DNA from: Gemmatimonadales bacterium
GTDB lineage: Bacteria > Gemmatimonadota > Gemmatimonadetes > Gemmatimonadales > GWC2-71-9
NCBI GenBank assembly: GCA_037189525.1
Contig: JBBCJC010000003.1
Location: 96,001-160,000 of the forward strand
Direction of reading: 5' to 3'
Length of the DNA: 64,000 nt
A program made the position numbers and the translations under genes. Below are positions 24,330 through 49,705 of this stretch, in pieces (the first letter of the stretch is position 1; the number at the start of each line of letters is the position of its first letter). The notes under the pieces were generated by a model. That model saw only the letters and a program-made list of their open reading frames with translations. It did not search any database and had not been told where the DNA came from.

Positions 24330-24402
24330 AGGCAGGCATTCGGTCGTTCCGGCCGGCTGCATCATCGGTTTCACCTTATCGAAGTCGCGGGGAAGCGGGT
24401 AC

Positions 24403-26394
24403 ATGATGAACCGTCTCAAGCAGATGATCGCCGTCTTCACGTTCCTGGTTGCTCTCGGGGCCGGGTCGGCTGTGGCGCAGCGTCCCATGACGCCCGAGGA
24501 CATTCTGGCGCTCAAGCAGGTCGCCGATCCGCAGGTCTCGCCGGACGGGCAATGGATCGCCTATGTGGTGAGCCAGACCGAGCTCGACCAGAACTCCGTC
24601 AACACCGACCTGTGGCTTGTTGCCGCCGCGGGCGGGGAGCCGATCCGGCTGACCACGAGCCCACGGGCCGACAATGCCCCGCGGTGGTCGCCGGACGGCA
24701 AGTGGATCGCATTTATCTCCGCCCGCGAGGAGCGGCCGCAGATCTGGCTGATCCGTCCGAACGGAGGCGAGGCCGAGAAGCTGACGTCCTCGAAGAGCGG
24801 TGTGCAGAGTCTCGCCTGGTCGCCCGACGGAAAGACCATTGCGTACACGGCCCTTCGCGAGTGGACGGCCGAGGAAGAGAAGAAGCAGAAAGACCGGGAT
24901 GACGCGATCGTGGTCGACCAGGATCACCGGTTCAGCCGGATCTGGACCATCGACGTCGCGAGCAAGAAGGCCACCGAAATCGTCTCGGGCGAATTCCAGC
25001 CTTCGGGCCCGCAGTGGTCGCCCGATGGTACCCAGCTGGCGTACGAAGTCCGGCCCACGCCTGCTGCGGACGACGGAAGCCGCTCGGATATCTACATCGT
25101 CACCCTGGCGAACAAAGAGACGCGTAAGCTCTTCGAGAATCCCGGAATCGACAACAGCCCGCGCTGGTCGCCCGATGGCAAGTGGATTGCGTTTGCGAGC
25201 CGGCCCGACGGCTTTGGCCAGGCCGAGCTCAAGGTGATTCCTTCGACGGGTGGCACGCCGCGGGCGATTGCCCCGCGCTTCCTCTATCAGCCCGGGCCGG
25301 TGACCTGGTCGGCGGATGGCCGGACGCTCTTCTTCACGGCGTCGGTGCGCACCACCAATCAGCTCTTCTCGGTGCCCGTGGCTGGTGGCGAACCGAAGCA
25401 GCTGACCTCGCACAACGGTACGATGAGTGGCGCTTCGATGTCCGACGACGGGCGGACCATTACCTTTACCGTGTCGGAGGTGACCAAGCCGAACGACGTG
25501 TACGTGGTGCGCGATCCTGCCCGGTTTACGCCCGTCAAACTCACCGACCACAATCCGCAGCTGGCGGACATCGCGCTCGGCCGGGGTGAGCTCTATCGCT
25601 GGAAGAGCAAGGACGGCAAGGAAATCGAGGGCGTCCTGATCTATCCGACCAACTACGATCCGTCGAAGCGGTATCCGACCATGGCGTTCATTCACGGCGG
25701 CCCGTCCGGCGTGTGGACCCAGGGCTTCCCGGGCAGCTCGGGCAACTACGGCCACATCTGGGCCGGGCGAGGCTGGGTCAGCTTCTATCCCAACGTGCGC
25801 GGCTCGAGCGGTTACGGCGATGCGTTCATGAAGTCCAACGTGCGCGATTGGGGCGGCGGCGACTATCAGGACATCCAGACCGGTCTCGATGAGCTGGTCC
25901 GTCGCGGCATTGCCGATCCCGACCGGATGGGGCAGAGCGGCTGGAGCTACGGTGGCTACATGACGGCGTGGACGCTGACCCAGACCGATCGCTTCAAAGG
26001 GGTGATGGTCGGCGCCGGCTTGACCAACATGTACTCGATGTATTCGACCAACGATCTCCAGACGACGCTCGAGAACTACTTCGGCGCGGAGCCCTGGGAT
26101 GACGAGGAAGCGTATCGCCGCGCCTCGGCGATGGTGTATATCAAGCAGGCCAAGACGCCCACGCTGATCCTGCACGGCCAGCAGGACATGCGAGTGCCGA
26201 TCGGGCAGGCCCAGGAGCTCTACATGGGTCTCAAGAAGAACGGGATCCCAGTCGAACTCGTCTTCTATCCTCGGGCAGGCCACGGCTTGTCGGAACCTCG
26301 GCATCAGCTGGACCGGATGCGGCGCGAGTATGCCTTCTTCTCGAAGCGCGTGCTGGGTGTGGACGTCGCCGACAAGCCGGCGCTGGTTCCGTGA
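24403..26394 (+). CDS. S9 family peptidase (beta-propeller plus alpha/beta hydrolase)
   Basis: Signal peptide, WSPDG repeats, IHGGP, GWSYGG, HGQQDMRVP, GHG. Confidence 0.92.
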   Translation: MMNRLKQMIAVFTFLVALGAGSAVAQRPMTPEDILALKQVADPQVSPDGQWIAYVVSQTELDQNSVNTDLWLVAAAGGEPIRLTTSPRADNAPRWSPDGKWIAFISAREERPQIWLIRPNGGEAEKLTSSKSGVQSLAWSPDGKTIAYTALREWTAEEEKKQKDRDDAIVVDQDHRFSRIWTIDVASKKATEIVSGEFQPSGPQWSPDGTQLAYEVRPTPAADDGSRSDIYIVTLANKETRKLFENPGIDNSPRWSPDGKWIAFASRPDGFGQAELKVIPSTGGTPRAIAPRFLYQPGPVTWSADGRTLFFTASVRTTNQLFSVPVAGGEPKQLTSHNGTMSGASMSDDGRTITFTVSEVTKPNDVYVVRDPARFTPVKLTDHNPQLADIALGRGELYRWKSKDGKEIEGVLIYPTNYDPSKRYPTMAFIHGGPSGVWTQGFPGSSGNYGHIWAGRGWVSFYPNVRGSSGYGDAFMKSNVRDWGGGDYQDIQTGLDELVRRGIADPDRMGQSGWSYGGYMTAWTLTQTDRFKGVMVGAGLTNMYSMYSTNDLQTTLENYFGAEPWDDEEAYRRASAMVYIKQAKTPTLILHGQQDMRVPIGQAQELYMGLKKNGIPVELVFYPRAGHGLSEPRHQLDRMRREYAFFSKRVLGVDVADKPALVP

Positions 26395-26432
26395 TGCCAA
26401 TCACTTCTCTGGATCCCGAACGGTATCCGCTC

Positions 26433-28442
26433 ATGCGTACAAAGCGTGGTCAGTCGCTGGCCGTGGTGGCGTTGCTCGGTGTGCTCGCAGCCGGCGCAGA
26501 GGCACAGAATGTCCTGACGCCGGAACGGGCGGCGGCCATGCGGATGCTGGGGCCGGTATCCCTGTCGCCGGATGGACGGCACGTGGTCTACAGCGTCACC
26601 GTGCCCAACCTGACGGAAAGCTCCACCAACTCGGATCTCTGGTTGGTGCCGTCCGCCGGCGGCGAGCCGATTCGCCTCACCAGTTCCAAGGTGATGGACG
26701 ATCAGCCCGCCTGGTCGCCGGACGGCAAGCGGATCGCTTTCGTGTCGGCCCGTGACGGCAAACCACAGATTTTCCTGATCTCTCCCTTCGGGGGCGAAGC
26801 GGAGAAGCTGACCGATTCCAAGACCGGGATCCAGTCCTTTGCCTGGGCGCCCGACGGGAATCGGATTGCCTACGTCGCCCCGCGCGATCCGACGCCGGAG
26901 GAGGAGAAGAAGCAGAAGGAGAAAGACGACGCGATCGTCGTCGATCAGAACTTCATCCCGGCCCGCCTGCATGTGATCGAGGTGGGCACCCGTAAGAGCA
27001 ATGAGGTCGTCAAAGGCGATTACCAGATCTCGTCGCTCGACTGGTCGCCTAACGGGCGGGAGATTGCCTTCGTGTCGATCCCGACGCCGCGGGCGGATGA
27101 CGGCCGCTATGCCGACATCCTGGTGGCCGATGTCGCATCGGGCACGACGAGGAAGCTGTACGACAATGCCGGCCCCGACGTCGGGCCGCGCTGGTCTCCG
27201 GACGGCGCCTCGATTGCGTTTTCGACCACGGCTGCGAAGGCCGTGGCGATTTCGCAGTCACGCCTGATGGTGATCCCGGCCGCCGGCGGGACCCCGCGTC
27301 CGCTTGCTCGGGACTTTCTCTATCAGCCGGGGACCGTGGCCTGGGCCGCCGACGGAAAGAGCGTCTACTTCTGGGCCTCGGTGCGGACCAGCACGGAGTT
27401 GTTCCATGCACCGGCCGATGGCGGGCCGGCCAAGCAGCTCTCCGACTTTCGTGGTTCGCGAGGGTGGTTCGGCGGTTCCACGCCGTCGCTCTCGAGCGAT
27501 CGCCGCACCATTGCCTTCGGCCGTTCCACCATGGATACGCCGGAGGATGTCTACGTGGCGCGGATCGATGCGCCCTGGGCCATGACCAAGCTCACGACCA
27601 TCAATCCGGAGCTGGCGGACGCGTCGCTGGGTAAGGGCGAAGTGGTGCGCTGGAAGAGTAAGGACGGGATGGAGGTCGAAGGGGTCCTGATCTATCCCGC
27701 CGGCTATCAGCCGGGACGCCGGTATCCGACCGTGGCGCTGATCCATGGCGGACCGTCGGGCGTGTGGGACCAGGGCTTTGGTTCCAGCTGGTACAATCCA
27801 GCGCAGGTCTATGCCTCGCAGGGGTGGGTGGCGTTTCTGCCCAATCCGCGCGGTTCGAGCGGCTACGGCGAGAAGTTCCTGGCGGCCAATCTCCGCGATT
27901 GGGGTGGCGGCGACTATCAGGACATCCAGACCGGGCTCGATGATCTGGTCCGCCGCGGCATCGCTGATCCGGGACGGATGGCGCAGGGCGGCTGGAGTTA
28001 TGGCGGCTACATGAGCGCCTGGACGCTGACCCAGACGGACCGGTTCAAGGCCATCATGGTTGGCGCGGGCCTGACCAACATGTACTCGATGTACTCCACC
28101 AACGACCTGCAGATGGTCCTCGAAGACTACTTCGGCGGCGAGCCCTGGAACGACGAGGAAGCCTACCGGCGCGCCTCGGCCATGGTGCACATCAAGCAGG
28201 CCAAGACGCCGACGCTGATCCTGCACGGACAGCAGGACATGCGGGTGCCGGTCGGACAGGCGCAGGAGCTCTACATGGGGCTCCGCAAGAACGGGATTCC
28301 GGTCGAACTGGTGTTCTATCCCCGGGAGGGTCATGGGCTGAACGAACCCCGCCACGCCCTCGACAAGATCCGGCGCGAGTACAACTTTTTCGCGAAGCAC
28401 GTTCTGGGGGTGGAACCCAACCCCGCGGCGCTGGTTCCCTAG
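26433..28442 (+). CDS. S9 family peptidase (tandem paralog)
   Basis: Signal peptide, WSPDG repeats, IHGGP, GWSYGG, HGQQDMRVP, EGHG. Confidence 0.92.
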   Translation: MRTKRGQSLAVVALLGVLAAGAEAQNVLTPERAAAMRMLGPVSLSPDGRHVVYSVTVPNLTESSTNSDLWLVPSAGGEPIRLTSSKVMDDQPAWSPDGKRIAFVSARDGKPQIFLISPFGGEAEKLTDSKTGIQSFAWAPDGNRIAYVAPRDPTPEEEKKQKEKDDAIVVDQNFIPARLHVIEVGTRKSNEVVKGDYQISSLDWSPNGREIAFVSIPTPRADDGRYADILVADVASGTTRKLYDNAGPDVGPRWSPDGASIAFSTTAAKAVAISQSRLMVIPAAGGTPRPLARDFLYQPGTVAWAADGKSVYFWASVRTSTELFHAPADGGPAKQLSDFRGSRGWFGGSTPSLSSDRRTIAFGRSTMDTPEDVYVARIDAPWAMTKLTTINPELADASLGKGEVVRWKSKDGMEVEGVLIYPAGYQPGRRYPTVALIHGGPSGVWDQGFGSSWYNPAQVYASQGWVAFLPNPRGSSGYGEKFLAANLRDWGGGDYQDIQTGLDDLVRRGIADPGRMAQGGWSYGGYMSAWTLTQTDRFKAIMVGAGLTNMYSMYSTNDLQMVLEDYFGGEPWNDEEAYRRASAMVHIKQAKTPTLILHGQQDMRVPVGQAQELYMGLRKNGIPVELVFYPREGHGLNEPRHALDKIRREYNFFAKHVLGVEPNPAALVP

Positions 28443-28475: not shown

Positions 28476-30029
28476 ATGCGAATGATGACCGCATCGATCG
28501 TCGCCCTCGCCGCCGTGGCCGGAATTCACCCGGCCAGGGCGCAGGAGCGTGTCGATGTTTGGATTCGAAACGGTAGCGTCTACGACGGCACCGGGGCCGC
28601 GCCGCGATCGGCGGATGTCGGTGTGCGCGGCGACCGGATCGTGTTCGTGGGACGGGCTCCGGCCGGTCTGACGGCGGCGCGAACCATCGATGCCAAAGGG
28701 CTGGTCGTGGTGCCGGGGTTCATCGACCCGCACACCCACACGGACGGCGACCTCCGCTCCCCCGAACGACGCGGGTTGCCGGGCTTCCTGCTGCAGGGCG
28801 TCACGACGGTCATCGTGGGCAGCGACGGTCGCGGTCCGATCGACGTTGCCAATGCGCGGGCTGCGATCGATCGGGACGGGGCGGGGACCAACGTCGCGTT
28901 CCTGGTCGGGCATACCACGGCGCGCCAGCGGGTGCTCGGCGGGTCGGCCGCGGCGCCGACGCCGGCCCAACTCGACAGCATGCGTACGCTGATTGCCAAG
29001 GGAATGCGGGAAGGGGCGTTCGGGATCTCGACCGGCCTGTATTACGCGCCCGCCAGCTATGCATCGACCGAGGAGGTCATCGCGCTGTCGAAGGTCGTTG
29101 GTGAGGCTGGCGGATATTACGACTCACACATCCGGGACGAGTCCAGCTATTCGATCGGCCTGCTCGCCGCTGTCGAAGAGGTGCTCCGGATCGGACGAGA
29201 GGCGAAGTTGCCGACGCATATTGCGCACATCAAAGCGCTCGGCGTCGATGTGTGGGGCAAGAGCGGCGAGGTGATCGACAAGATCCAGGCCGCTCGTAAG
29301 GCGGGGCAGAAGGTCACGGCTGACCAGTATCCCTACACGGCGTCGGGAAGCGGTATCGGCGCTTCGTTGCTTCCTCGCTGGGCGGAAGCCGGCGGGCGGG
29401 ATTCGCTCCGTCGCCGTCTGGCCGATCCGACCATTCGCGATACCCTCGTGGCGGAAATGCGCAACAACCTTCGCCGCCGCGGCGGGCCGGACGCGTTGTT
29501 GATCACCGCGGGGCAGTGGAAGGGCCGCCGGCTCTCCGAAGTCGCCAAGCAGACCGGGGTCGATCCGATCGATGCCGCCATCACCATCGTCGCTGGCGGC
29601 GATGCGGGCGTGGCCTCCTTCAACATGCAGGAAGCCGACATCGACAACTTCATGCAGCAGGACTTCGTGGTTACCGGTTCGGACGGGTCGGGAGGACATC
29701 CCCGGAAGTTCGGGACCTTTCCGCGCAAGCTCCGGCGTTATGTGCTCGACCGCGGCGTCATCACGCTCGCGCGCGCCGTCGAAGCGAGCAGTCGTCAAAC
29801 GGCCGAGATCGTCGGCATCGCCGATCGTGGCGTATTGGCGGCCGGGAAATTTGCCGATGTGGTGGTCCTGGATTCGACCCGCCTGATCGACCGGTCGACC
29901 TATGAGGCGCCCGAAGAGCTGGCCGAGGGCATCGTGTATGTCCTCGTCAATGGTCGTGTCGCGGTGGATGGCGGCAAGCCGAACGGGACGCTGGCCGGTC
30001 GCGCCCTCTCTCGGCCGACCCGTCGTTAG
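28476..30029 (+). CDS. N-acyl-D-amino-acid deacylase family amidohydrolase
   Basis: PGFIDPHTH, GISTGLYY, SHIRDE, HIK, ADQYPY, GSDG..HPR. Confidence 0.9.
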   Translation: MRMMTASIVALAAVAGIHPARAQERVDVWIRNGSVYDGTGAAPRSADVGVRGDRIVFVGRAPAGLTAARTIDAKGLVVVPGFIDPHTHTDGDLRSPERRGLPGFLLQGVTTVIVGSDGRGPIDVANARAAIDRDGAGTNVAFLVGHTTARQRVLGGSAAAPTPAQLDSMRTLIAKGMREGAFGISTGLYYAPASYASTEEVIALSKVVGEAGGYYDSHIRDESSYSIGLLAAVEEVLRIGREAKLPTHIAHIKALGVDVWGKSGEVIDKIQAARKAGQKVTADQYPYTASGSGIGASLLPRWAEAGGRDSLRRRLADPTIRDTLVAEMRNNLRRRGGPDALLITAGQWKGRRLSEVAKQTGVDPIDAAITIVAGGDAGVASFNMQEADIDNFMQQDFVVTGSDGSGGHPRKFGTFPRKLRRYVLDRGVITLARAVEASSRQTAEIVGIADRGVLAAGKFADVVVLDSTRLIDRSTYEAPEELAEGIVYVLVNGRVAVDGGKPNGTLAGRALSRPTRR

Positions 30030-30038
30030 TCGTTTCCG

Positions 30039-30087
30039 CGTCGTTCAATCGGCGGCGTCTCCTGCTTGCGCTGCCGATTGAACGACG
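30039..30087 (+). terminator. Long hairpin, probable terminator after the hydrolase operon
   Basis: CGTCGTTCAATCGGCGGCG / CGCTGCCGATTGAACGACG inverted repeat followed by pyrimidine-rich sequence. Confidence 0.7.
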
Positions 30088-30384
30088 TTCTCATTCTCGC
30101 TTCATTCTTTCCTCATAGTCGTTAGCAGTCGCCGGGCGTTCAGAGCCCGGGCTTTGCCGCTCATGGCAATCCAACGCGGCCGATGGCGTCGCCGGCCGCC
30201 CCTCCGATCGTTGCATCTCCTCCAATTGTCGTATCGCTAGGTACGTACTACGGATTCTTGGCAATTACTTGCCTGCTCTCGTCTTGTCGAAGCGCGTCCG
30301 ATTTGGAAGATTTGCATCGTCAATCGCGGCCACGCTACACGGGCACGAGCCGCACCAGTCTTCAGCCGAGTAGAATCGATCGTC

Positions 30385-30684
30385 ATGGGGCTCCTGTCCA
30401 TTTTTCGCCGAACGCCGACCGATCGCTTTCGCCGGTCGCCACACGTGAAGTCGGTGGCGCACGGCGATAAGGTCGTGTTGATGGATCTGCGGGGTGAACA
30501 GTTCTACTCGCTGGACGGCATCGCGGTTCGGATGTGGGATCATCTGGCTGAACCATCCACGGCCGAGCGGTTGTCCGACCTGGTCGTTGCCGAGTACGAC
30601 GTGCCGATCGAGGTGGCGCGGGGCGACGTCACGGCGTGCCTGGATGAAATGACTCGGGGCGGACTGGTGTTGGCTGGTCGATGA
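30385..30684 (+). CDS. Lasso peptide RiPP recognition element (B1, PqqD family)
   Basis: 99 aa; VVLMDLRGEQFYSLDGIAVRMWDHL...EYDV...DVTACLDEM..GLV PqqD signature. Confidence 0.92.
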   Translation: MGLLSIFRRTPTDRFRRSPHVKSVAHGDKVVLMDLRGEQFYSLDGIAVRMWDHLAEPSTAERLSDLVVAEYDVPIEVARGDVTACLDEMTRGGLVLAGR

Positions 30685-31070
30685 GCGCACGCCCCTGGTT
30701 TGTGACCGCATTTGCAGCCGTGTCCGTCGCGCGTCTGTCGCTTCGGCTGGCGGGATTCAGCCGCACCATGACGTGGGTCTCGCGTCTGGCGCCTAAGCTG
30801 GCTCGGCGCACGTCGCGGGGCACGGCCGACGGCATCGTGCGGAGCGTCGCCGTTGCGGCGGCATTCTTTCCCGGCCGCGCCATCTGCCTGGAACAGTCGG
30901 TGGCCAGCTATCTGTTGCTCCGGCGTTGGGGGCATGACGTGGCCCTGCGCGTTGGAGTACAGCCCTATCCGTTCCGCGCGCACGCCTGGGTCGAGCTGGA
31001 CGGCCGGCCGCTGCTCGAGAATGAAGACGAGCTGGTCAAGTTCGTGCCGTTTCCCGAGGCCTTCGCATGA
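30681..31070 (+). CDS. Lasso peptide leader peptidase (B2, transglutaminase-like)
   Basis: CLEQS catalytic Cys, GVQPYPFRAHAWVE catalytic His; ATGA coupling to B1 and C. Confidence 0.93.
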   Translation: MSARPWFVTAFAAVSVARLSLRLAGFSRTMTWVSRLAPKLARRTSRGTADGIVRSVAVAAAFFPGRAICLEQSVASYLLLRRWGHDVALRVGVQPYPFRAHAWVELDGRPLLENEDELVKFVPFPEAFA

Positions 31071-32938
31071 ATCCGTTCATGTGTGTGGTCGATCTGGGTG
31101 GCGACACCGTCGGCATCGATGCCCTGGTTGCCGCGCTGCCCGCGGTGGGACGCGCCGGGGAGCGAACCGAGGTGCTGCTGCATGGCGCCTGGGGGGCGGC
31201 TTGGGTACCGGCCGAGAGCAACGGGCGGCCGGCCATTGCGCATCGTGACGGAATTCTGGCCCTCGGCAGTGCGCGGATTACCAACCGGTCGGCGCTGCGG
31301 GGCGGGGCGGTGCGGTCCGGCGCTGGTGATCTGGACCTGATCATCGAGCGGTATCTCGCGCACGACACGGCCGGGTTCCGTGAGCTGGTGGGCGATTTCG
31401 CCGTCGTGCTGTGGGACACCCGCGCCCACCGGCTGATTGCCGTTCGCGACGCGTTAGGCGTCAAGACGCTCTTCTATCAGCGTACCGGCAATCGCCTCGT
31501 GGTCGGGTCGCACCTCGAATGTTTCGAGTCGACTCGCTACGATCGCTCGTTCCTGGGTGACATGCTGCTCGGGTTGCGCCGCGGGACGGAGCGGACGGTC
31601 TTTGCCGGCGTTACCCGTCTGCTGCCCGGGACGTCCCTCACGGCCGACGCCCTCGGTGTCCGCACCAGGCGCTACTGGGATGCGGCGGAGTTTGTGGCCG
31701 CCGATGCCGTTGCCGACGAGCGGGAAGCCATCGCCGAGTTCCGGCGGTTGTTTCGCGAGGCGGTGCTGGCCCAGATGGATGACGGCGCTTCAACCTGGGC
31801 GCAGCTGTCGGGCGGGCTCGACTCGTCGTCGGTGGTCGCCATGGCCCAGCAGCTCGCGGCCGAAGGGCTCGTGTCGCCGCTCGCTGGGACCCAGACCGTG
31901 GTCGATTCGCTGGCCGAGGGCGACGAGACGCGCTATTCCGACGCGGTGGTCCGCCAGTACGGCCTGCGGAACGAGCGCGTGAGCGACTATGCCGCGTGGC
32001 AGGATGACGGGCAGCTGCCGCCCGACTTTGCCGATCCTCGTCTCTTCCTGCCGTTCTATGCGCGGGATCGCGCCCTGCGGGACGTGGTACGCAATGCCGG
32101 CGGCGCGGTGCTGCTGAGCGGGTACGGCGCCGACAACTATCTCTCAGGAACGTACGACTTCCTGGCGGATTGGGTCGCGCGCGGCCGGATCAAGGATGCG
32201 TTGGGCGAGCTGGTCAATCTCGCGGTGGCGTCGCGCCGCTCGTTCTGGGGACTCGGCATCGATCACATCCTGGTGCCGCTCGGGCCGATGTGGTTCAAGC
32301 GCCGGCGGGCCATTCGGGGTCGCGACCTGCCGAACTGGTTTTCGCCGGAGCTGGTGGCGGAGCAGCGTCTGGACGAGCGGATCCTGACCGGAAACGCCGA
32401 TGGCGCGCCGGGCGAGATCTACGCTCGCCTGCAGGCCGAGGAAATCGGCAGCATCGACCTGGCGCTGGAGCGTGGGGTGTTCGAGGAGGGGATCGAGGTT
32501 CGCTATCCGTTCCTGCATCGGCCGCTGGTGGAATTTGCGCTGCGGCTGCCCCTCAAGCTTCGCTTCCGGCCCAACCGGGCCAAGTGGATCCTCCGCGAAG
32601 CCATGGGCGATGCATTGCCCGAGGTGGTGCGGAACCGCCAGGGCAAAGGGGCCATCGACGGGCGGCTCATCTGGTCCTTTCAGCAGCACTATGGAATGCT
32701 CGAACGCCTGGTGGAAGGCTCTCACTTGGCGGAACTAGGGTACGTGAATCGCGAGCGCCTCAAGCAGGCATTGGATCAGGCCCGTCGCGGTGCGACGGAA
32801 TCGGTTTCGAAGCTCTTCTTTACGCTCTCGCTGGAGATGTGGTTTGCTGTGCGTTCAGGGCGGTGGGTGCGACAGGTAGCCCAGGCGCCAAATATCGTTC
32901 TAAATCAACCTGTATCATACCTTTTTCAGGAGTTGTAG
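31067..32938 (+). CDS. Lasso peptide cyclase (C, asparagine synthetase-like)
   Basis: GDFAVVLWD, RDALGVKTLFY, LSGGLDSS, LSGYGAD, RYPFLHRPLVEFAL; lacks N-terminal catalytic Cys of AsnB. Confidence 0.93.
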   Translation: MNPFMCVVDLGGDTVGIDALVAALPAVGRAGERTEVLLHGAWGAAWVPAESNGRPAIAHRDGILALGSARITNRSALRGGAVRSGAGDLDLIIERYLAHDTAGFRELVGDFAVVLWDTRAHRLIAVRDALGVKTLFYQRTGNRLVVGSHLECFESTRYDRSFLGDMLLGLRRGTERTVFAGVTRLLPGTSLTADALGVRTRRYWDAAEFVAADAVADEREAIAEFRRLFREAVLAQMDDGASTWAQLSGGLDSSSVVAMAQQLAAEGLVSPLAGTQTVVDSLAEGDETRYSDAVVRQYGLRNERVSDYAAWQDDGQLPPDFADPRLFLPFYARDRALRDVVRNAGGAVLLSGYGADNYLSGTYDFLADWVARGRIKDALGELVNLAVASRRSFWGLGIDHILVPLGPMWFKRRRAIRGRDLPNWFSPELVAEQRLDERILTGNADGAPGEIYARLQAEEIGSIDLALERGVFEEGIEVRYPFLHRPLVEFALRLPLKLRFRPNRAKWILREAMGDALPEVVRNRQGKGAIDGRLIWSFQQHYGMLERLVEGSHLAELGYVNRERLKQALDQARRGATESVSKLFFTLSLEMWFAVRSGRWVRQVAQAPNIVLNQPVSYLFQEL

Positions 32939-32939
32939 C

Positions 32940-33059
32940 GTGTCTAAGCTTACGTATGTCAAGCCGTCGGTGACCAAGATGGGCTCCGTGGCCGAAAAGA
33001 CCGAGGGCGGTTTCAGGGCAGAGATCTTCGAGATCTTCACGATGCGTGGGGCGCTCTGA
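32940..33059 (+). CDS. Lasso peptide precursor A: MSKLTYVKPSVTKMGSVAEKTE-GGFRAEIFEIFTMRGAL
   Basis: Manual translation; AGGAG RBS within cyclase 3' end, GTG start; leader YxxPxVxxxGxxxxxT with Thr at -2; core starts with Gly and has Glu9. Confidence 0.9.
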   Translation: MSKLTYVKPSVTKMGSVAEKTEGGFRAEIFEIFTMRGAL

Positions 33060-33091
33060 TTCTGGCTGGCTGGGAATCGATGTGAGTAAGA

Positions 33092-33121
33092 GAGCGTTCA
33101 CCACGATTGTGGTGGACGCTC
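33092..33121 (+). other. Stem-loop downstream of the precursor gene
   Basis: GAGCGTTCACCAC-GATT-GTGGTGGACGCTC, no strong U-tract. Confidence 0.6.
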
Positions 33122-33201
33122 GACCCCTTTCCACTTGCCCTCCCGTTCCAAACTGCGCCCGATCCGATAGATTGATAGGGTGACCCAAATACAATATTGC
33201 G

Positions 33202-35760
33202 ATGACCCGCGTTCGCGACGCTCTAGAGCAAGGCACTAGGGCGCTCCGTACTTGGATGTCTAACGGCGGCATTGTCGCTGCCGTTGCCATCCTTGGCGGG
33301 TTGGCCTTTCAAGCCGTCGCTTGGGCGGCGCCTGGCGTGATTACGGCGCGTGCTTACCGCCTTAACATGCTCCTGTCGAATCTCCTGTTCGCGGCATTCT
33401 GGCTTCGAGCCATTCGGAGTCTGCCGCTTGGCGGACGTATTCGGCCGGCCGCGTTCGTAGTTTTTGCAGCCGTTGTTGTAGGCTTGGCCGGGAGTGTGCT
33501 TAGCTCATTCAGCGGCCTTCGAGGCGAGCTGATGCTCGTTGTCGGCGTACTTTATTGGGTCGCCGGGCCCCTCCTCGTCTGCGCGCTGTTGATTTGGCCA
33601 CGTGTATTGAATCGCCACATTCGCCACCAGTACTTGGTCATTGACGTCGGCATCATTGCAATTGCCGTAGTCCTGTTCATCTGGTATGTCCGAGTCGGTC
33701 CAGCGGCGAGTGTTCGCGGTTCGATGTCGTTTGAGGACATGGGCGTCCTTGTGACATCGAGTTTGTTGCTGGCAGGAATAAGTCTCGCTGTTCTCCGACG
33801 GCCAACGCCGGAGTACTCAGTGCCCTTCATGCTCGTCGTGCTTTGGACGGCGGTCATGTTTACCGGCAACTTCGGGCTTTCGTTGTTTGCGGTGCCGGTT
33901 CACTCGATGCAGTATTGGGCAACCCTCTTTTCGATTGGAGGTTTTCTCCTTCCGATTCTTGCTGCAGAGTCACTCCGTATCCGCTACTATCGGGCTCCTG
34001 ATGCTAAGGCCGTCGAAGGTGCCAATCCTATTCCCTGGTTTGCCGTCCTTGCGATCGGTGGCTTCGTCCTCAAAATCGGCATCGAGCAGCTGTCCACTGG
34101 GGTAGGGCTCATCGTCATCGGGGCTGTGGTCACCATGCTCCTGCTCGTGATCCGGCAGGCCATGACGATGCGCCACAACGCCGAGCTCCAGGCCGAGCGG
34201 GCCAATCTCCTGGCGGACGCCAAGATCGCCGCCATGGTGCGCCACACCTCGGACGTCATCATGGTGGTCGACGAGCAGCTCATCGTCAGGTACGCATCAC
34301 CCTCGTCCGAAGCGCTTTGGGGGCGGGCCGCCAGCGTTCTGGTGGGACAGGAGCTGACCACGCTGGTCGAGGCTTCGAGCCGGCGCGAGGTCACCCGTCT
34401 CCTGTCCGAGCGGCTGGCCCGTCCCGGCCAGACCGATCTGGCGCGGGTCCGCGTTCCCGGACCCGACGGCAGTTCGCGCCGGATCGAAGCGGTGGCGGTC
34501 AGTCTGTTGCACGAGCCGTCCGTGCACGGAATCGTGATCACGATGCGCGACCAGACCGAGCGGATCCAGCTCGAGGAACAGTTGGCGCAGGCTCAGAAAA
34601 TGGAGGCCGTCGGGCAACTGGCCGGCGGGGTCGCCCACGATTTCAACAATCTGCTGACCACCATTCTCGGCCATACCGAGGTCGGGCTCGATCTGCTGAC
34701 GGACGACCACCCGGTGCGTGAAGATCTCACCCAGATTCGCCGCGCCAGCGAACTCGCGGCCTCGCTGACCCGGCAGCTCCTGGCATTCAGCCGGAAACAG
34801 GTCGTCGAGCCGAGACTGGTCGACGTGGGCATCTCGCTGGATCAGGTGGTCCGCTTGCTGCGCCGCCTGATCAAGGAACATGTCGAGATCAAGCTGGAGG
34901 TGTCGCGCGATCTGGGGCAGGTGCGGGTCGATCCGTCGCAGCTGGAACAGGTCGTCCTCAACCTGGCCGTCAACGCTCGCGACGCGATGCCCGATGGCGG
35001 CCTGCTGACCATTCAGGCGCGTACGGTGATCGTGCCGGGTCCGCTCGCCGATGCGGTGATTCCGCCGCCGCAGGGCCGGTGTATCGTGGTCGAAGTCGTC
35101 GATACCGGAATGGGGATGGACCCTGCAACCCAGGCGCGCATCTTCGAGCCGTTCTTCACCACCAAACCGATCGGCCGGGGAACCGGGCTGGGTCTGGCCA
35201 GCGTCTATGGAATCGTGAAGCAGAGCGGCGCCGGCCTGGTGGTGCGGAGCGCGCCCGGGAAGGGCAGTACCTTCTCGGTCTACTTTGCCTGGGTCGCTCC
35301 GGAACCCGAACCGGCGACGCCAGCGGCGGTTGCCCCGAGCCGCGAGGGCGCCGCCCTGCCGCGATTTGCCGCGACGATCCTACTGGTCGAGGACGAGACC
35401 GCACTCAGGGAAATTGCGCACAAGGTGCTGGCGCGCGAGGGCTATCGCGTGCTGGTGGCCGCCGACGCCGAGGAAGGGATCACTCTGGCCGAGACCGCGC
35501 CGTTCCCGATCGACATGCTGCTGACCGATGTCGTGATGCCGGGGATGAACGGGGTCGAGCTGGCCCGGCGCCTCCGCAGCAAACGTCCCAACCTTCGCGT
35601 GTTGCTGATGTCCGGGTACCCGGGCGATGACCTGGCCGGCGAGCTCCGCGACCATCAGCGCTTCCTCCGCAAGCCGTTCACGCCGTTCGTTCTGCTGGAG
35701 CATGTCCGGGCCGCGCTGGCCGGTCTCTCGGATCCGACGGCGGTCGAACCGGACCGATAG
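33202..35760 (+). CDS. Membrane hybrid sensor histidine kinase (multi-TM input, PAS, HisKA, HATPase, REC)
   Basis: About 9 hydrophobic segments, then QAQKMEAVGQLAGGVAHDFNNLL, NLAVNARDAM, FFTTK..GRGTGLGL, LLTDVVMPGMNG. Confidence 0.92.
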   Translation: MTRVRDALEQGTRALRTWMSNGGIVAAVAILGGLAFQAVAWAAPGVITARAYRLNMLLSNLLFAAFWLRAIRSLPLGGRIRPAAFVVFAAVVVGLAGSVLSSFSGLRGELMLVVGVLYWVAGPLLVCALLIWPRVLNRHIRHQYLVIDVGIIAIAVVLFIWYVRVGPAASVRGSMSFEDMGVLVTSSLLLAGISLAVLRRPTPEYSVPFMLVVLWTAVMFTGNFGLSLFAVPVHSMQYWATLFSIGGFLLPILAAESLRIRYYRAPDAKAVEGANPIPWFAVLAIGGFVLKIGIEQLSTGVGLIVIGAVVTMLLLVIRQAMTMRHNAELQAERANLLADAKIAAMVRHTSDVIMVVDEQLIVRYASPSSEALWGRAASVLVGQELTTLVEASSRREVTRLLSERLARPGQTDLARVRVPGPDGSSRRIEAVAVSLLHEPSVHGIVITMRDQTERIQLEEQLAQAQKMEAVGQLAGGVAHDFNNLLTTILGHTEVGLDLLTDDHPVREDLTQIRRASELAASLTRQLLAFSRKQVVEPRLVDVGISLDQVVRLLRRLIKEHVEIKLEVSRDLGQVRVDPSQLEQVVLNLAVNARDAMPDGGLLTIQARTVIVPGPLADAVIPPPQGRCIVVEVVDTGMGMDPATQARIFEPFFTTKPIGRGTGLGLASVYGIVKQSGAGLVVRSAPGKGSTFSVYFAWVAPEPEPATPAAVAPSREGAALPRFAATILLVEDETALREIAHKVLAREGYRVLVAADAEEGITLAETAPFPIDMLLTDVVMPGMNGVELARRLRSKRPNLRVLLMSGYPGDDLAGELRDHQRFLRKPFTPFVLLEHVRAALAGLSDPTAVEPDR

Positions 35761-35822
35761 TCGCAACCCGTTCGCCTCTCACGACGCGCACCAGACCATC
35801 CACCGATATCAGAATCGGCACC

Positions 35823-35865
35823 AAAAAGAGACACCGCCACCCGGCCGAAGCCGAGCGGCGGTGTC
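35823..35865 (-). terminator. Rho-independent terminator for the minus-strand gene
   Basis: GACACCGCC...GGCGGTGTC stem followed on the minus strand by TCTTTTT. Confidence 0.7.
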
Positions 35866-35889
35866 CGTACCGAGCGAGTAATGGAACGA

Positions 35890-36366
35890 TTACTCGCCGG
35901 TACCGCCTGCGCTCGCACGCAGGTCGCCGCAGGCGATGGCGGGGGAGCTCGTCGCACCGCTATGCACACTCACCGCATACTCACTGCCTTCGTTGAGCGG
36001 GCCGGCAATCGTCGCGGTGGACGTGGCCGCGCCCTGTCCGTCGGTGCGCAGCGCCGAATAGGCCGACGCCGAGCCGACCGTCTGGCCGCCCGCGCCACAG
36101 CGCCCCTCATGGACCTGCCAAGCCAGCGTCGCGTCGGCCGGGCCGCCGGTGACGGAGATGGTCGCCGTGTAGCTCTGCGACGCCGACGGAGTGGCCGTCG
36201 TGTCGGCCGGCATGCTCGGCCCGGCGGCGCTCTGGACCGTGGCTCGGCCCGCGATCGACGAGCCGTCGACGGCAGCGAGGGTGGCGCTCCATGATGCGGC
36301 ACCGAACGAAGCCGCGGCGAGCAATCCGGCGGCGCTGAAGACGGCAGTGACGTTACGAATACGCAT
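35890..36366 (-). CDS. Secreted protein, CHRD/Cu-Zn SOD-like fold (tentative)
   Basis: GGAGG RBS, signal peptide, WQVHEGRC, VSVH, IACGDL. Confidence 0.65.
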   Translation of the reverse strand: MRIRNVTAVFSAAGLLAAASFGAASWSATLAAVDGSSIAGRATVQSAAGPSMPADTTATPSASQSYTATISVTGGPADATLAWQVHEGRCGAGGQTVGSASAYSALRTDGQGAATSTATIAGPLNEGSEYAVSVHSGATSSPAIACGDLRASAGGTGE

Positions 36367-36767
36367 GTGATCCTCCTTGGTATTGGCGAACTTCACAACA
36401 CTATTCCCACTCGATCGAACCCAAGTTCCGAAAACAGAAAAGGCGCGACCCGGGCCCCGAAGAGCCCGATTTCGCGCCTACCATCGACGAATCCAGATGA
36501 TTCGCCAATGAGGCCAGCTCGACCTGATGCCGAGCCGCCGATTGTCCTGCCACTCACACACTACGCAGTCGCGCCCGATGCGTCAATAGCCAAAATTCGG
36601 TCGCACCGGGTTCGCGCCCATCGGTGCAAGATTTCCGGTCGCGAACCGTCGCCTCTTCGTCCACGGTGTGCGCGGCGTCCACCTGCGCAGCTCACGGCGG
36701 GAGGGGTGGGCCGGAATCGGTCACCGTGCATTGGCTACAATGGAGGCCGTCTCTGGCACAGGTTCGC

Positions 36768-39686
36768 GTGTCGCTGTCATCACGATACGATCCCCGTCGC
36801 GTTGCCGGCGTGGCGGGGCGGGTCGTCAGTGCGCTGGGCCTGCTGGGTCTGGCGGGATGGCTGATCGACTCGCCGGCGCTCGTGCGTCTTCTGGACGGTT
36901 ATCCGCCGCTGGTGCCGAACGCCGGTATCGCGCTGGTGGGGGCCGGCCTCGGTCTGACCGGCCTCGAGCGGGATCGGGGCGAGGTGGCGAGGCTCGGCGC
37001 CAGCATCGCGCTCCTGATCGGGATGCTGACCTTTGCGCAGCATGTATCGTCGCTCGATCTCCGGATCGACGGGATCTTTCTGCCCCGCGACGGCGGAGAG
37101 CTCGTCACCGGTCGCGATCCGGGGCGGATGGCTGCTGTCTCCGCGCTGTCGCTGACGTTGGCCGGCATCGGGCTCCTGGCGCTGCTGGCCGAAGCGCGCA
37201 GCAGCACACTGGCGATCCTGGCGGGCGTGGCCGGGGCTACCGTCGGAACGTTAGGCGGCACGGTGGTGGTCGGCTACGCTACGGGCGCCCTCACCGATCT
37301 TCGGCATGGCATCGTGGCCGGCATGTCGGCCTACGAATCGGTTGCGTTCCTGCTGCTCGGCTTGGGGATGGTCGGATATGCCTGGGAGCACGATCGCCCG
37401 GTTCGCTCGCTGCCGTCGTGGCTGGCGCCGGCCGTCGGGGTTGGCGGACTGACGACGGCTCTACTGGTCTGGAAGGCGCTAACCAGTCTCGAGGGCGATC
37501 GGCTCGATGACCGGCTCGGGGTCGAAGCGTCGGTGGTGCGGCAGCGGGTGGCCGTCGAGATCGACGGGCTGGTCAAGGATCTGGACCGGTTGGCGCGGCG
37601 CGCCATCCGCCTGCCGGCGTTCTGGGAAGTCGATGCGCAGGCAGCGCTGCGGGAGGGCAGTGTCTACGCGGCTGTCGGGTGGGTGGGTGCCGACGGCACC
37701 GTGCGGCGGGCGGCTCCGACGACGGCGGCGCCGATGATTGCGGAGATCGTGAAACAGGGCGTGACGCCGGTGGCCGATACTGTGCGCTTGCTGCGCTATC
37801 CGGCGCAGACGGTGTCGGCCGGGTTGCTGCAGGACGGCCGGTTCCTGGCGCTCCGGGTCGCTTCGTGCGACGAGGACAGGTGCGCAGGCGACATGGTCGG
37901 TTTTTTCGACCTGGCCGCGGTGCTCAGGTCCGGTCTCTCGGCGCCGCGCCGCGAAATCTGCCTCTCGATTACGACCGGTGGCCTCGAGCTGCTGGCTGAC
38001 GACCGGCCCGAATGTGTGTTCAGTCGGGGCGCATCGGCGTATCTGGCTGTCGGCTCGATGTCGTGGACGATCACGGCCGCGCCGACCACGGCGATGATGG
38101 CGTCGGCCGGATCGGCGTTGTCGGCGGTGGTGCTGAGTCTGGGCGTCGTGGTGAGCGCGTTGCTGACGGTGAGTCTGCGGCTGGCGCAGCGATCATGGGG
38201 ATTGGCGCGCGAGGTGGAGCGGCGGCAGGTCACCCGCGCGCTGGAGACCGCGACGGACGGGCTCTGGGAGTGGGACCTGCCGGACGGCCCGATGGCGCGC
38301 CGGGCGATGTGGCGCGGACTGGGTTATGCCTTTTCGGAAACGGACCGCGCGGGATGGGAGGCGCTGATCCATCCGGACGATATCGACGGCGTTCGACGCG
38401 GCGTCGACGAGTATCTGCGCGGCGCGGCGGAAACGCTGAGCCTCGAGTATCGGATTCGCGACGCGCGGGGCCAGTGGCACTGGATCATCGATCGGGCCCG
38501 GGTCACCGAGCGTACCGGGTGGGGCGCCCCGCGACGCATGCTCGGCATCCATGGTGACGTTACGGAGCGGCGTCGCGCGGCGGATCAGGTCCGGACCAGC
38601 GAGGAGCGGTTTCGCGCCATCTTCGACAGCGCCTTCCAGTTTCAAGCCCTGCTCGATCTCGAGGGGCGCCTGCTGCTCGCCAACCGGACCGCACTCGAGT
38701 TTGCCGGTGTGCCGCTCGACGCGGTGCGCGGCAGCCGGCTCTGGGAAACTGCCTGGTGGTCGGAGGCGGATGAGGAGGGGCGGGCCCGGCTGATCGATGC
38801 GTGCCGTCGCGCGGCCGATGGAAAGACGATCCAATATCAGGACGAAGTCACCGGCTCGGGAGGCCGCCGCGCGACGATCGAGTTTTCGGTCAAACCGATT
38901 CGTACACCCGACGGATCGGTGGGACAGCTGCTGGCCGAGGGTCGGGATGTTACCGAGCGAAAGCGGGCGGAGGATGCGCTCAAGGAGCTCGATACGTTGA
39001 GTACGATGGGGCGACTCGCGGCCCGGGTTGCGCACGAGATCAATAATCCGTTGGCCGGGATCCAGAACTCGTTCATGCTGATCAAAGACGCGGTCTCACC
39101 CGATCACCCCTACCATCGGTACGTCGGGGCCATCGGTCGCGAGATCGATCGGATCGCGAGCGTGACGCGTGAACTGTACGGTCTCTACCGCGCCGAGCAT
39201 GCGAACAAAGAGCGCACCTCGGTGGCAACCGCCATCACCGATGCGGTCGAACTGCTCAAACAGGTCAATCGGGCCGCGGACGTCGAAATCAGAGCGGACA
39301 TCGCGGGCGCGCCGGCGATCATGCCGTTTCCCGATGCGCTGATTCGGCAAGTGGTCTTCAACCTGGTCCAGAACGCCGTGGAGGCCTCGCCTCCGCGCGG
39401 CATCGTTTTCGTGACGGCGGATGTCGTCGACGAGGGCGGGAAGCGATGCTTCCGGCTGGCCGTCCGGGATCAGGGCGACGGAGTGCCGGATACGCTCAAA
39501 GAGCAGATCTTTCAGGATTTCTACAGCACCAAGAGCGGACTCAGAACCGGCGGGATGGGGCTCGGGCTCTCGATCGTCCGGAGCTCGGTGCGCGCGTTAG
39601 GCGGCGAAATCGACATTCGTGAACCCGATGGAGGCGGCGCCGAGTTCGTGGTGCGCCTTCCGATCAATGAGGAGGTGTCCGTATGA
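36768..39686 (+). CDS. Membrane PAS-domain sensor histidine kinase
   Basis: TM helices, two PAS/PAC domains (IHPDD, WETAWW), AHEINNPL, NLVQNA, GMGLGL; start uncertain. Confidence 0.9.
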   Translation: MSLSSRYDPRRVAGVAGRVVSALGLLGLAGWLIDSPALVRLLDGYPPLVPNAGIALVGAGLGLTGLERDRGEVARLGASIALLIGMLTFAQHVSSLDLRIDGIFLPRDGGELVTGRDPGRMAAVSALSLTLAGIGLLALLAEARSSTLAILAGVAGATVGTLGGTVVVGYATGALTDLRHGIVAGMSAYESVAFLLLGLGMVGYAWEHDRPVRSLPSWLAPAVGVGGLTTALLVWKALTSLEGDRLDDRLGVEASVVRQRVAVEIDGLVKDLDRLARRAIRLPAFWEVDAQAALREGSVYAAVGWVGADGTVRRAAPTTAAPMIAEIVKQGVTPVADTVRLLRYPAQTVSAGLLQDGRFLALRVASCDEDRCAGDMVGFFDLAAVLRSGLSAPRREICLSITTGGLELLADDRPECVFSRGASAYLAVGSMSWTITAAPTTAMMASAGSALSAVVLSLGVVVSALLTVSLRLAQRSWGLAREVERRQVTRALETATDGLWEWDLPDGPMARRAMWRGLGYAFSETDRAGWEALIHPDDIDGVRRGVDEYLRGAAETLSLEYRIRDARGQWHWIIDRARVTERTGWGAPRRMLGIHGDVTERRRAADQVRTSEERFRAIFDSAFQFQALLDLEGRLLLANRTALEFAGVPLDAVRGSRLWETAWWSEADEEGRARLIDACRRAADGKTIQYQDEVTGSGGRRATIEFSVKPIRTPDGSVGQLLAEGRDVTERKRAEDALKELDTLSTMGRLAARVAHEINNPLAGIQNSFMLIKDAVSPDHPYHRYVGAIGREIDRIASVTRELYGLYRAEHANKERTSVATAITDAVELLKQVNRAADVEIRADIAGAPAIMPFPDALIRQVVFNLVQNAVEASPPRGIVFVTADVVDEGGKRCFRLAVRDQGDGVPDTLKEQIFQDFYSTKSGLRTGGMGLGLSIVRSSVRALGGEIDIREPDGGGAEFVVRLPINEEVSV

Positions 39687-40408
39687 GCGAGCGAGGCCAG
39701 ATTCTTCTCGCGGACGACGAGGAAGTGTTCGGCGCATCGACCGCGGATCTGTTGCGGCGGCAGGGCTACGGATGCGATGTCGTTCCGGATGGGGGTACCG
39801 CCCTGGCTGCCGTGGGGCAGGGGCAGTACGACTTGCTGATCAGCGATCTCGAAATGCCCGGGAACGAGGACCTGACCCTGGTACGGCAGGTGTCCGAACG
39901 GGTGGGCGGGTTGCCCGTCATCATCCTGACCGGGTTTCCCTCCACCCGGTCGGCGATTGCCTGTATCGAACTCCCGGTCGTGGCCTATCTCGTCAAACCG
40001 GTTGCGTTCGATCAATTGCTGAGCAAGGTCGAGGCGGCGGTGGCTCGCTTTCGGTCGTACACCGCGATGCGACGGACCGAAGAGCGGCTACGAGAGTGGA
40101 ATCGCGAAGTCGCGACCGTGGCGGCGCCGGGGGCGGGCGGGGGCCCGGAATCGATCGACGCTTTTTTGACGCTCACGCTGCGCAACGTCATGGGATCATT
40201 GACGGACCTTGGGGAAATGAGTCGCGCGCTGGCGCAAAAACAGCAGGGGCCGCATGCCTGCCAGCTGGTCAACTGTCCGAGGGGGTTGCAACTCCAGGAG
40301 GCGGTACGCGAAACGGTCCAAGTGCTGGAGGAAACCAAAGGCGCTTTTCGCTCCAAGACACTGGCCAACTTGCGACGACAGTTGGAGGTGCTGCTCGATA
40401 CCAACTGA
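39683..40408 (+). CDS. Response regulator with an unrecognised C-terminal output domain
   Basis: ILLADDE, DLLISDLEMPG, LTG, YLVKP; ATGA overlap with kinase. Confidence 0.88.
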   Translation: MSERGQILLADDEEVFGASTADLLRRQGYGCDVVPDGGTALAAVGQGQYDLLISDLEMPGNEDLTLVRQVSERVGGLPVIILTGFPSTRSAIACIELPVVAYLVKPVAFDQLLSKVEAAVARFRSYTAMRRTEERLREWNREVATVAAPGAGGGPESIDAFLTLTLRNVMGSLTDLGEMSRALAQKQQGPHACQLVNCPRGLQLQEAVRETVQVLEETKGAFRSKTLANLRRQLEVLLDTN

Positions 40409-47407: not shown

Positions 47408-47534
47408 GTCAGATCGAACCTTTCGAGTCCAGTGCCCGTCTCGTCGATTCCGTTCCTCGTACGCGACGGTGTCGAGGATGCCGGAGATCCGGGGCAAGAC
47501 GGGTCGGAATGTACACCGGAGTAGCGCCGAACGA

Positions 47535-48404: not shown

Positions 48405-48528
48405 GAAGATATCGTAGGGTCGGGAGGACGGGGCCGTCAAGGAGGGCCGGCGGGGATTGCCAGCGTCGAGCCCCTCGCAATACTATGCCGGAACGGTCGG
48501 CTCACGATCATCCGAGGAAACGGAAGGT

Positions 48529-49560: not shown

Positions 49561-49569
49561 TCAGCGCGA

Positions 49570-49599
49570 TTGACAAGGGAAAGCCCGGGACAGTAACCT
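49570..49599 (+). promoter_or_regulatory. Sigma70 promoter for tRNA-Ala
   Basis: TTGACA-18 nt-TAACCT followed by a GC-rich discriminator. Confidence 0.7.
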
Positions 49600-49632
49600 T
49601 CCCCCCGTCGGCGCCCGCAGTCTGCGCCGCGC

Positions 49633-49705
49633 GGGGCCTTAGCTCAGTTGGGAGAGCGATTGCTTTGCAAGCAATAGGTCGCCGGTTCGATCCCGGCAGG
49701 CTCCA
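49633..49705 (+). tRNA. tRNA-Ala (TGC), CCA not encoded
   Basis: Cloverleaf: acceptor GGGGCCT/AGGCTCC with G3:U70, D arm TAGCTCAGTTGGGAGAGC, anticodon arm ATTGC-TTTGCAA-GCAAT, T loop GGTTCGATCC. Confidence 0.96.

Follow-up and report, generated by a model that had tools for sequence, protein, structure and literature searches.

Two adjoining stretches of low third-position GC in a lasso-peptide and hybrid histidine kinase module of Gemmatimonadota, with a candidate peptide receptor

In the agr (AgrB-AgrD-AgrC) and comQXP pherotype loci of Firmicutes, the variable region spans the maturase, the peptide and the sensor domain of the receptor. This paper describes a locus of a Gemmatimonadales bacterium (GCA_037189525.1, contig JBBCJC010000003.1, positions 96,001-160,000 of the forward strand; these 64,000 nucleotides are called the window, and all positions refer to it), in which a lasso-peptide cluster is followed by a hybrid histidine kinase and in which the GC content drops locally. 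A preliminary description of this DNA had interpreted the drop as a single cassette, running from the cyclase C-terminus through the precursor into the kinase sensor domain, that was exchanged or diversified as one unit. Here, the dip is divided into two adjoining stretches of a conserved module, and it is proposed, with a probability of roughly 0.55, that the larger one encodes a membrane sensor which probably diversifies in its role as receptor for the module's own variable peptide.

Like agr and comQXP, the locus combines, in adjacent and here co-inherited genes, the precursor of a modified peptide, an enzyme for its maturation and a histidine kinase with multiple membrane helices. A hypervariable stretch with edges inside genes likewise covers the peptide and the membrane sensor, the kinase core being conserved, and the synonymous divergence (dS) suggests that this centre recombines separately from its flanks. 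In contrast to the Firmicutes loci, a PqqD/protease/cyclase set would produce the peptide, a predicted lasso; the hybrid kinase contains its own receiver and lacks an adjacent response regulator; and the DNA of the maturase part is conserved instead of divergent. Neither discrete specificity groups nor tree incongruence was seen here, and the phylum is Gemmatimonadota. The interpretation as a pherotype-like divergent peptide-plus-sensor centre, here built on a lasso peptide, is partly supported.

With class II lasso clusters that have a split B protein, the locus shares B1 (PqqD/RRE), B2 and C as well as a precursor with Thr at position -2, Gly1 and an acidic residue 9. It differs from them in the order B1-B2-C-A, with the precursor last, in having neither an ABC exporter nor an isopeptidase, and in the dedicated 10-helix hybrid kinase after the precursor. 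A sensor histidine kinase within or beside a lasso cluster has been reported before, in the excerpts considered here: ruminal clusters of Butyrivibrio and Lachnospira contain WalK/ResE-like kinases (PMC7533575), and the humidimycin cluster of Streptomyces contains two-component genes (PMC7168211). In contrast to the window locus, these appear in the excerpts as conventional pairs of kinase and regulator obtained by genome mining, and the excerpted text of PMC7533575 does not describe a hypervariable sensor, a composition shift or a kinase directly after the precursor. According to an excerpt of another study, 29 marine Gemmatimonadota genomes carry lasso clusters, for which an antibacterial role was assumed (PMC11316326), and an anti-virulence activity of lasso peptides against pathogens is mentioned in part of a further report (PMC11872507). 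In the literature excerpts retrieved on lasso peptides together with kinases, two-component systems, quorum sensing, autoinducers or Gemmatimonads, we found no description of a cluster whose own kinase senses its lasso peptide.

The conserved five-gene module

By its predicted genes, the locus is a five-gene module on the forward (+) strand. B1 (30385-30684) codes for a PqqD-like leader-recognition protein (RRE) of 99 residues (Pfam PF05402, E 2.8e-14). It is followed by B2 (30681-31070), coding for a transglutaminase-like leader protease of 129 residues (Pfam PF13471, E 9e-24) that is syntenic in relatives, and by C (31067-32938), coding for an asparagine-synthetase-like lasso cyclase of 623 residues with the Pfam domains Asn_synthase and GATase_7. 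The best NCBIfam model for the cyclase is the lasso cyclase model NF033535, at 195 bits under a cut-off of 525 bits. The lasso precursor A of 39 residues (32940-33059) was identified by translation between cyclase and kinase, with homologues at the same spot in relatives. The last gene (33202-35760) codes for a hybrid histidine kinase of 852 residues, recognized by its Pfam domains, with a membrane domain of approximately 330 residues. The elements that define a lasso cluster were thereby found together, namely the B1 RRE with the B2 protease, the cyclase, and a precursor with Thr -2, Gly1 and Glu9.

For comparison, 22 species of one Gemmatimonas-like genus were used, each represented by a single genome with a label such as G021 or G005; the window genome and the sister species G021 and G005 are referred to as the trio. 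The cyclase was found in 18 of the 22 genus genomes (E <= 1e-60), with 89-90% identity between the window protein and those of G021 and G005 and 47-58% to the remaining genus members. A 19th genome, G009, holds a 3' fragment of the gene at a contig end, and three (G013, G014 and G018) contain neither the cyclase nor a full-length orthologue of the kinase. The order B1-B2-C-A-kinase was present in every locus spanned by its contig, B1 was located upstream of B2 in those relatives whose contigs extend there, and an identical gene order was identified in G023 from a neighbouring genus. Downstream, the neighbouring genes are common to the trio only; upstream, an amidohydrolase gene is present in the trio and at two more loci. 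Because the neighbour genes differ between species, the five genes are considered a conserved unit, and on this comparison the module is inherited vertically and as a unit within the genus while its surroundings vary. More distant lasso clusters of Gemmatimonadota, with cyclases 35-47% identical, mostly have no kinase downstream.

The precursor consists of a conserved leader with Thr at position -2 and a core of 17 residues. All 18 loci that cover the spot between cyclase and kinase contain a precursor homologue, and in each of them the leader, Gly1 and Glu9 are conserved, as is a tail motif x-M/F-S/T-x-R. Residues 2-8 of the ring, however, are hypervariable, which in this respect agrees with the preliminary interpretation. 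The leader model NF033521 (NCBIfam lasso_leader_L3) gave 18.5 bits at a cut-off of 19. Because of Thr -2, Gly1 and Glu9, the mature product is predicted to be a 17-residue lasso with a 9-residue Gly1-Glu9 ring.

A conserved and a divergent stretch within one dip

In 300-base windows, the GC content drops from 0.66-0.72 to 0.53-0.59 between approximately 32700 and 34100. Seven hand counts of GC in lines of 60 bases, on which the dip had originally been based, were exact on recounting (26, 30, 28, 45, 45, 35 and 40). The GC content at third codon positions (GC3) is 0.62 in codons 1-280 of the kinase versus 0.84 in codons 335-852, and 0.62 in the final 80 codons of the cyclase versus 0.83 in the remainder. 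The excess of A/T-ending codons that had been described was likewise found: 140 of 366 codons (38%) in the dip end in A or T, versus 181 of 1109 (16%) elsewhere in cyclase and kinase (Fisher p = 4e-17). Inside the dip the share of GC-ending codons is reduced in 10 of 10 synonymous families, and CTT, GTT, ATT and GCA are enriched 4-14x. The GC3 profile also places the boundaries as described, with a gradual onset within the cyclase gene near 32690 and an end within the kinase gene where the variable membrane domain stops; this distal edge is sharp, GC3 rising from 0.50-0.66 to 0.88-0.94 between 34040 and 34100. The precursor, which had been counted as part of the low-GC cassette, is low in raw GC, but its GC3 is normal (0.80) and the low value comes from the first codon position (0.475), i.e. 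from the amino-acid make-up.

Within the genome, a GC3 this low was present in 0.19% of 11,443 windows of 280 codons (mean 0.81, standard deviation 0.05), taken from 2,211 coding-like open reading frames with a whole-frame GC3 > 0.72, a filter that leaves low-GC islands out. None of the 197 hydrophobic windows of this length was equally low (mean 0.84). It had also been stated that the transmembrane regions of the other window kinases are richer in GC, and this holds for two kinases, with GC3 of 0.80-0.90 and one bin at 0.68. Transmembrane coding as the cause of the low GC3 was rejected on these two observations. For raw GC, 1.5% of the 1391-base windows of the genome, located in 38 segments, are as low as the dip.

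The low GC3 is common to the trio, both in the sensor (window 0.62, G021 0.69, G005 0.62) and in the cyclase end (0.62, 0.65 and 0.64). Other orthologues in the genus show the same trend more weakly, the GC3 gap between the sensor and the rest of the kinase being 0.00-0.13, compared with 0.22 in the window. By parsimony within the trio, changes from G/C to A/T at third positions are 2-3x more frequent in the sensor (0.21-0.35) than in the flanks (0.09-0.15), and changes from A/T to G/C are alike in both. Because the trio shares the low GC3 although its sensors are saturated at synonymous sites, the low GC3 of the sensor is judged to be a long-standing, maintained local equilibrium and not the relic of a recent import. 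A dip in GC3 below the size of a gene can accordingly mark a long-lived diversifying segment instead of a recent import, and a single dip can conceal two opposite regimes, with conserved AT-ending codons beside rapidly changing ones.

The larger stretch is the sensor module of the kinase, comprising helices 1-8 (codons 1-283; 33202-34050, + strand), which is low in GC3 and hyperdivergent. DNA identity between the window and G021 is approximately 0.83 in cyclase and precursor, 0.54-0.57 in the following intergenic region, 0.59-0.78 in codons 1-283 and 0.85-0.91 after approximately 34050; for 33060-34050 as a whole it is 0.57-0.76. The nonsynonymous divergence (dN) of the sensor is 0.16-0.19 to G021 and 0.31-0.39 to G005, and its dS in the trio ranges from 1.56 to saturated; the remainder of the kinase has a dN of 0.03-0.06 and a dS of 0.76-0.99. 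For the flanks overall, dN is 0.03-0.08 and dS 0.7-1.1. In helices 1-8, amino-acid change thus runs 5-10x as fast as in the flanks, with a dS that ranges from doubled to saturated.

The divergence edge near 34050 coincides with the loop ahead of helix 9. Helices 9-10 and the linker (34051-34224, + strand) behave like the cytoplasmic domains, with an identity to the relatives of 0.90-0.92, dN of 0.04-0.08 and GC3 of 0.88-0.95. The cytoplasmic part (34225-35760, + strand) consists, according to Pfam, of PAS (residues 342-450), HisKA (471-533), HATPase_c (577-695) and Response_reg (726-835). A divergent block with the same edges recurs in the pairs G003/G010, G011/G008 and G006/G016. Across the 64 kb of synteny, only six segments are low in identity, the sensor region among them. 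The transmembrane parts of the two other window kinases are conserved, the identity at first and second codon positions being 0.92-0.97 for one kinase and 0.80-0.93 for the other.

No match to the sensor module was identified in Pfam or NCBIfam. An AlphaFold model built from 22 aligned sensors consists of ten long helices (pLDDT 80.8, pTM 0.76), and by the positive-inside rule both ends of the membrane domain are predicted to be cytoplasmic, with short outside loops. Fifteen positions of this scaffold are invariant in 13 orthologues of the genus, nine of which remain after the addition of nine sensors from other genera. Foldseek found no PDB structure at E <= 0.001, and the VIA-align matches were all generic 7-helix bundles at Z <= 12, a score too low to be meaningful for helical bundles; the sensor is assigned to no family. 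In G005 (L002 4286-5258), a gene for an IS3-type transposase (HTH_21 and rve, 302 residues) is inserted in the kinase after codon 198, which leaves an open N-terminal fragment of 196 codons and a C-terminal open reading frame of 646 codons; the element is present in G005 only.

The smaller stretch is the 3' end of the cyclase gene (32690-32938, + strand; delimited by GC3, dS and alignment), which has a GC3 of 0.62 and terminates with the precursor's GGAG ribosome-binding site. In the trio, cyclase codons 541-623 have a dS of 0.41-0.61 and the precursor of 0.51-0.59, compared with 0.7-1.1 in the cyclase body and the kinase core, and nowhere in the locus is the DNA better conserved than in the cyclase 3' end and the precursor leader. 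In the three-way alignment of the trio, long identical blocks that include third positions were found there, and change from A/T to G/C at third positions is 0.06-0.20, versus 0.31-0.40 in the gene body, A/T sites being 3-5x more stable. The dN/dS of codons 541-623 is 0.19-0.37 versus 0.05-0.08 elsewhere in the gene. At all 13 orthologous loci measured, the final 60-80 cyclase codons lie below the gene body in GC3. The low dS of the cyclase end recurs in G003/G010 (0.12 versus 0.24) and G020/G012 (0.16 versus 0.64) and is absent in G006/G016. The GGAG ahead of the precursor start is unchanged in 17 of 17 aligned loci. Because the AT-ending codons are kept between species, as the low dS indicates, we infer a role of these codons in the cyclase 3' end and leader at the nucleotide level, in expression of the precursor. 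A proposed internal promoter is without direct support, since a scan of 30000-36600 for sigma-70-type promoters gave 0 sites; promoters in this phylum may be of a different type. A search of the same region with Rfam gave nothing at E <= 1.

Between precursor and kinase, a 13-bp GC-rich hairpin (33092-33121, + strand) was identified by RNA folding and is predicted to be an attenuator or a transcript stabilizer. In all 18 loci, 1-40 nucleotides separate the precursor stop from a strong hairpin (-17 to -44 kcal/mol, calculated with no shuffle control), which is of unrelated sequence. The structure is kept and the sequence is not, and a short T-rich run follows some of the copies. Within the cyclase end, at 32712-32743, positions 32725, 32726, 32734, 32737 and 32743 are alike in four metagenome runs and both sister species, and the window differs from them, which suggests changes in the cyclase C-terminal region that are specific for the window lineage.

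The expectation of conserved flanks around a divergent centre in relatives is consequently borne out for the sensor and the peptide ring, but not for the cyclase 3' end and the leader, which show the lowest dS of the locus. The parts that had been taken as one unit behave oppositely in the trio, with dS of 0.41-0.61 on one side and of 1.56 to saturated on the other.

Recombination of the centre was indicated by two pairs of other species. In G003/G010, the sensor has a proportion of synonymous differences (pS) of 0.44, compared with 0.21 in the cytoplasmic part and a divergence of 10% in the adjacent upstream intergenic DNA, and dS of the centre is 2.8x that of the flanks. In G020/G012 the relation is reversed, the centre having 0.4x the dS of the flanks: from the last approximately 120 cyclase codons through the precursor to most of the sensor, identity is 0.90-0.98 and dS 0.16-0.23, versus an identity of 0.82-0.89 and dS of 0.57-0.64 in the flanks. 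This stretch, which is close to the cassette of the preliminary description, appears to have been exchanged between those two lineages. Because the synonymous depth of the centre is deeper or shallower than that of the flanks in the two pairs, the centre appears to have recombined separately from them. Because the G003/G010 sensors are deeply diverged while the adjacent intergenic DNA differs by only 10%, relaxed codon constraint alone is insufficient as an explanation.

In metagenome contigs from four runs of three studies, the flanks of the window locus are covered at approximately 96-98% identity. The summed depth across 33014-34017 is 0-10 at >= 80% likeness, where a gap in contig cover is no evidence of absence and the centre is spanned by no single contig; short window-type contigs in run X2 reach 33326. 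With the G021 allele as reference (>= 90%), run X3 contains that sequence at 100% along the entire stretch, and almost no G021 sensor was found in the other three runs. No RNA run was among those listed. In a metagenome scan with the cyclase, the best matches were at most 47% identical, with no strain-level relatives.

Receptor, anchor or target

In the proposed explanation, the mature lasso peptide, with its 9-residue Gly1-Glu9 ring variable at residues 2-8, would be sensed by helices 1-8 of the kinase, and the sensor would diversify owing to this role as a peptide receptor. The divergence could then lower GC3 in either of two ways: it may suppress homologous recombination and the GC-biased repair that accompanies it, or recurrent selection may weaken codon selection by interference, AT-biased mutation being left to act in both cases. 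The conserved AT-rich cyclase 3' end would carry signals for expression of the precursor, and the hairpin after the precursor may set the ratio of precursor to kinase.

Several findings weigh against this explanation. Change in the ring does not track sensor divergence: the rings of G021 and G005 are identical at a sensor identity of 52-56%, and those of G020 and G012 differ at two positions, yet their sensors are 89% identical. Among 105 pairs, ring distance correlates no better with the sensor (Spearman rho 0.58) than with the kinase core (0.53). The dN/dS of the sensor is 0.10-0.29 overall and positive selection was not seen, so that relaxed constraint with purifying selection fits as well; part of the raised sensor dS could reflect weaker constraint on codon usage and not a deeper history, and levels of synonymous saturation vary with composition. 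Sensor and core trees are congruent in shallow clades. The sensor belongs to a wider family of Gemmatimonadaceae sensors with transmembrane and PAS parts (22-30% identity), and none of 13 family members examined from other genera adjoins lasso genes. According to Pfam and the gene neighbourhoods, the conserved module contains neither an exporter nor a response regulator with an output domain. Finally, with one genome per species, alleles within a species cannot show up in this sampling.

The main rival is that helices 1-8 are a weakly constrained membrane anchor, which would merely tether a kinase that senses by other means, for example by PAS. Drift and weak codon selection would then account for the low GC3, and the kinase would regulate the lasso genes or simply neighbour them. 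This explanation is considered unlikely, although it stays alive because dN/dS is below 0.3, never near 1, and because covariation of ring and sensor beyond phylogeny is absent. The congruent trees agree with it too, as do related sensors outside lasso clusters, among them a 41% identical paralogue in G015 with no lasso genes alongside. However, the invariant positions and the confidently modelled helical bundle are unexpected for a mere anchor, and the membrane domains of the other window kinases are conserved and GC-rich. The reversal in G020/G012 and a sensor pS in G003/G010 that is 4x the adjacent intergenic divergence would need recombination and not drift alone, and an anchor would leave the co-inheritance of the kinase with the lasso genes, while neighbours change, to be accounted for.

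An arms race was considered as a further alternative, in which the 10-helix domain is the target, the immunity determinant or the export route of a lasso peptide, its own or that of a competitor, and diversifies to escape or to accommodate it. The hyperdivergence of the sensor would fit, and domain searches of the locus identified no ABC exporter and no membrane protein other than the kinase. Furthermore, siamycin I and sviceucin are reported, in part of PMC11872507, to act on histidine-kinase systems of pathogens. Against this stands that no transporter family or fold was detected, the generic 7-helix bundles being the only structural matches. Because the domain is fused to a complete and strongly conserved PAS-HisKA-HATPase-receiver chain, a signalling role is pointed to, and the arms race is rated as improbable.

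A recent horizontal swap, in which this genome received its cyclase C-terminus, precursor and kinase sensor as a cassette from a donor of lower GC, would explain the atypical composition with edges inside genes and has a parallel in the cassette-sized stretch moved between the G020 and G012 lineages and in the location of a second lasso cluster of the same genome in a low-GC island, but it is very improbable and largely refuted for this genome, since all 64 kb of the window are collinear with G021 and G005 at approximately 82% DNA identity, the trio is alike in low GC3 at the same two stretches despite saturated sensors, no DNA of the locus has diverged less within the trio than the precursor and the 3' end of the cyclase gene, mobility genes are absent from the window locus (the IS3-type element being restricted to G005), and no closer homologue was found in a word-based protein search. 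In the maximum-likelihood trees, which had been suggested as a comparison of the membrane domain with the kinase core, the window sensor groups with G021 and then with G005, as the catalytic core does, the sensor branches being 5-10x longer; the nearest relatives are the same genomes for the sensor and for the flanks. When the sensor was compared by word matching with 5.8 billion proteins, the G021 and G005 types were its only close homologues; distant donors could escape such a search, close ones not. The interpretation of the locus as a horizontally acquired genomic island was rejected on the same grounds, i.e. edges inside genes, synteny with both sisters and the absence of mobility genes.

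For the receptor explanation, the idea of a pherotype-like exchange or diversification therefore stands in part: the divergent peptide-plus-sensor centre and its separate recombination in two other pairs speak for it, and a homogeneous cassette and covariation of ring and sensor were not obtained. A wider interpretation is held tentatively and is, on balance, doubtful: lasso peptides may act as lineage-specific cell-to-cell pheromones in Gemmatimonadota, with the ring as specificity code and helices 1-8 as receptor, and with a cassette that diversifies and occasionally recombines between lineages like the agr and comQXP pherotypes. If true, quorum sensing by a lasso peptide would be seen here for the first time, and lasso peptides would have a physiological role in their producers. 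The benefit of lasso peptides to the producers is largely unclear, and most were studied as antibiotics against other species. A dedicated, hyperdivergent sensor kinase that directly follows a precursor with a hypervariable ring, throughout a genus of a poorly studied phylum, makes the peptide a concrete candidate for a self-produced, lineage-specific lasso signal.

Surroundings of the module and the second lasso cluster

Upstream of the lasso cluster, two tandem paralogous genes of the S9 prolyl-oligopeptidase family (24250-28442; PD40/DPPIV propellers) were identified, which are preceded by a gene of the beta-lactamase family and followed by the amidohydrolase gene. The S9 peptidases and the amidohydrolase were rejected as (isopeptidase-like) members of the cluster, since they are confined to the trio, except for the amidohydrolase in two further loci.

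Downstream of the module, the adjacent gene codes for a 1020-residue kinase (36624-39686), whose N-terminal part (36600-37160) has a DNA identity of 0.71-0.75, versus approximately 0.84 in its core, at a normal GC3 of 0.83. The receiver protein nearest to the module (39683-40408) comes after this second kinase and is present in the trio only. A further histidine kinase of 1296 residues (3268-7158) has approximately 12 predicted membrane helices and no recognized sensor domain, and its DNA identity in the sisters is 0.84-0.85. Within otherwise collinear DNA, 47300-48700 and 49400-50200 are unalignable to both sisters; they resemble indels or replaced segments flanking the gene at 48457-49560.

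The second lasso cluster of the same genome (G000:C2:327000-340000; locus L203 4000-17000) lies in a 13-kb low-GC island with a GC content of 0.52-0.59. It codes for a transglutaminase-type B protein, a cyclase 28% identical to that of the window, a 535-residue protein without assignment, an 870-residue S9 peptidase as candidate isopeptidase, and a MacB/FtsX-type permease, and fragments of a sigma-54 activator adjoin it. In contrast to the window locus, its composition is atypical throughout.

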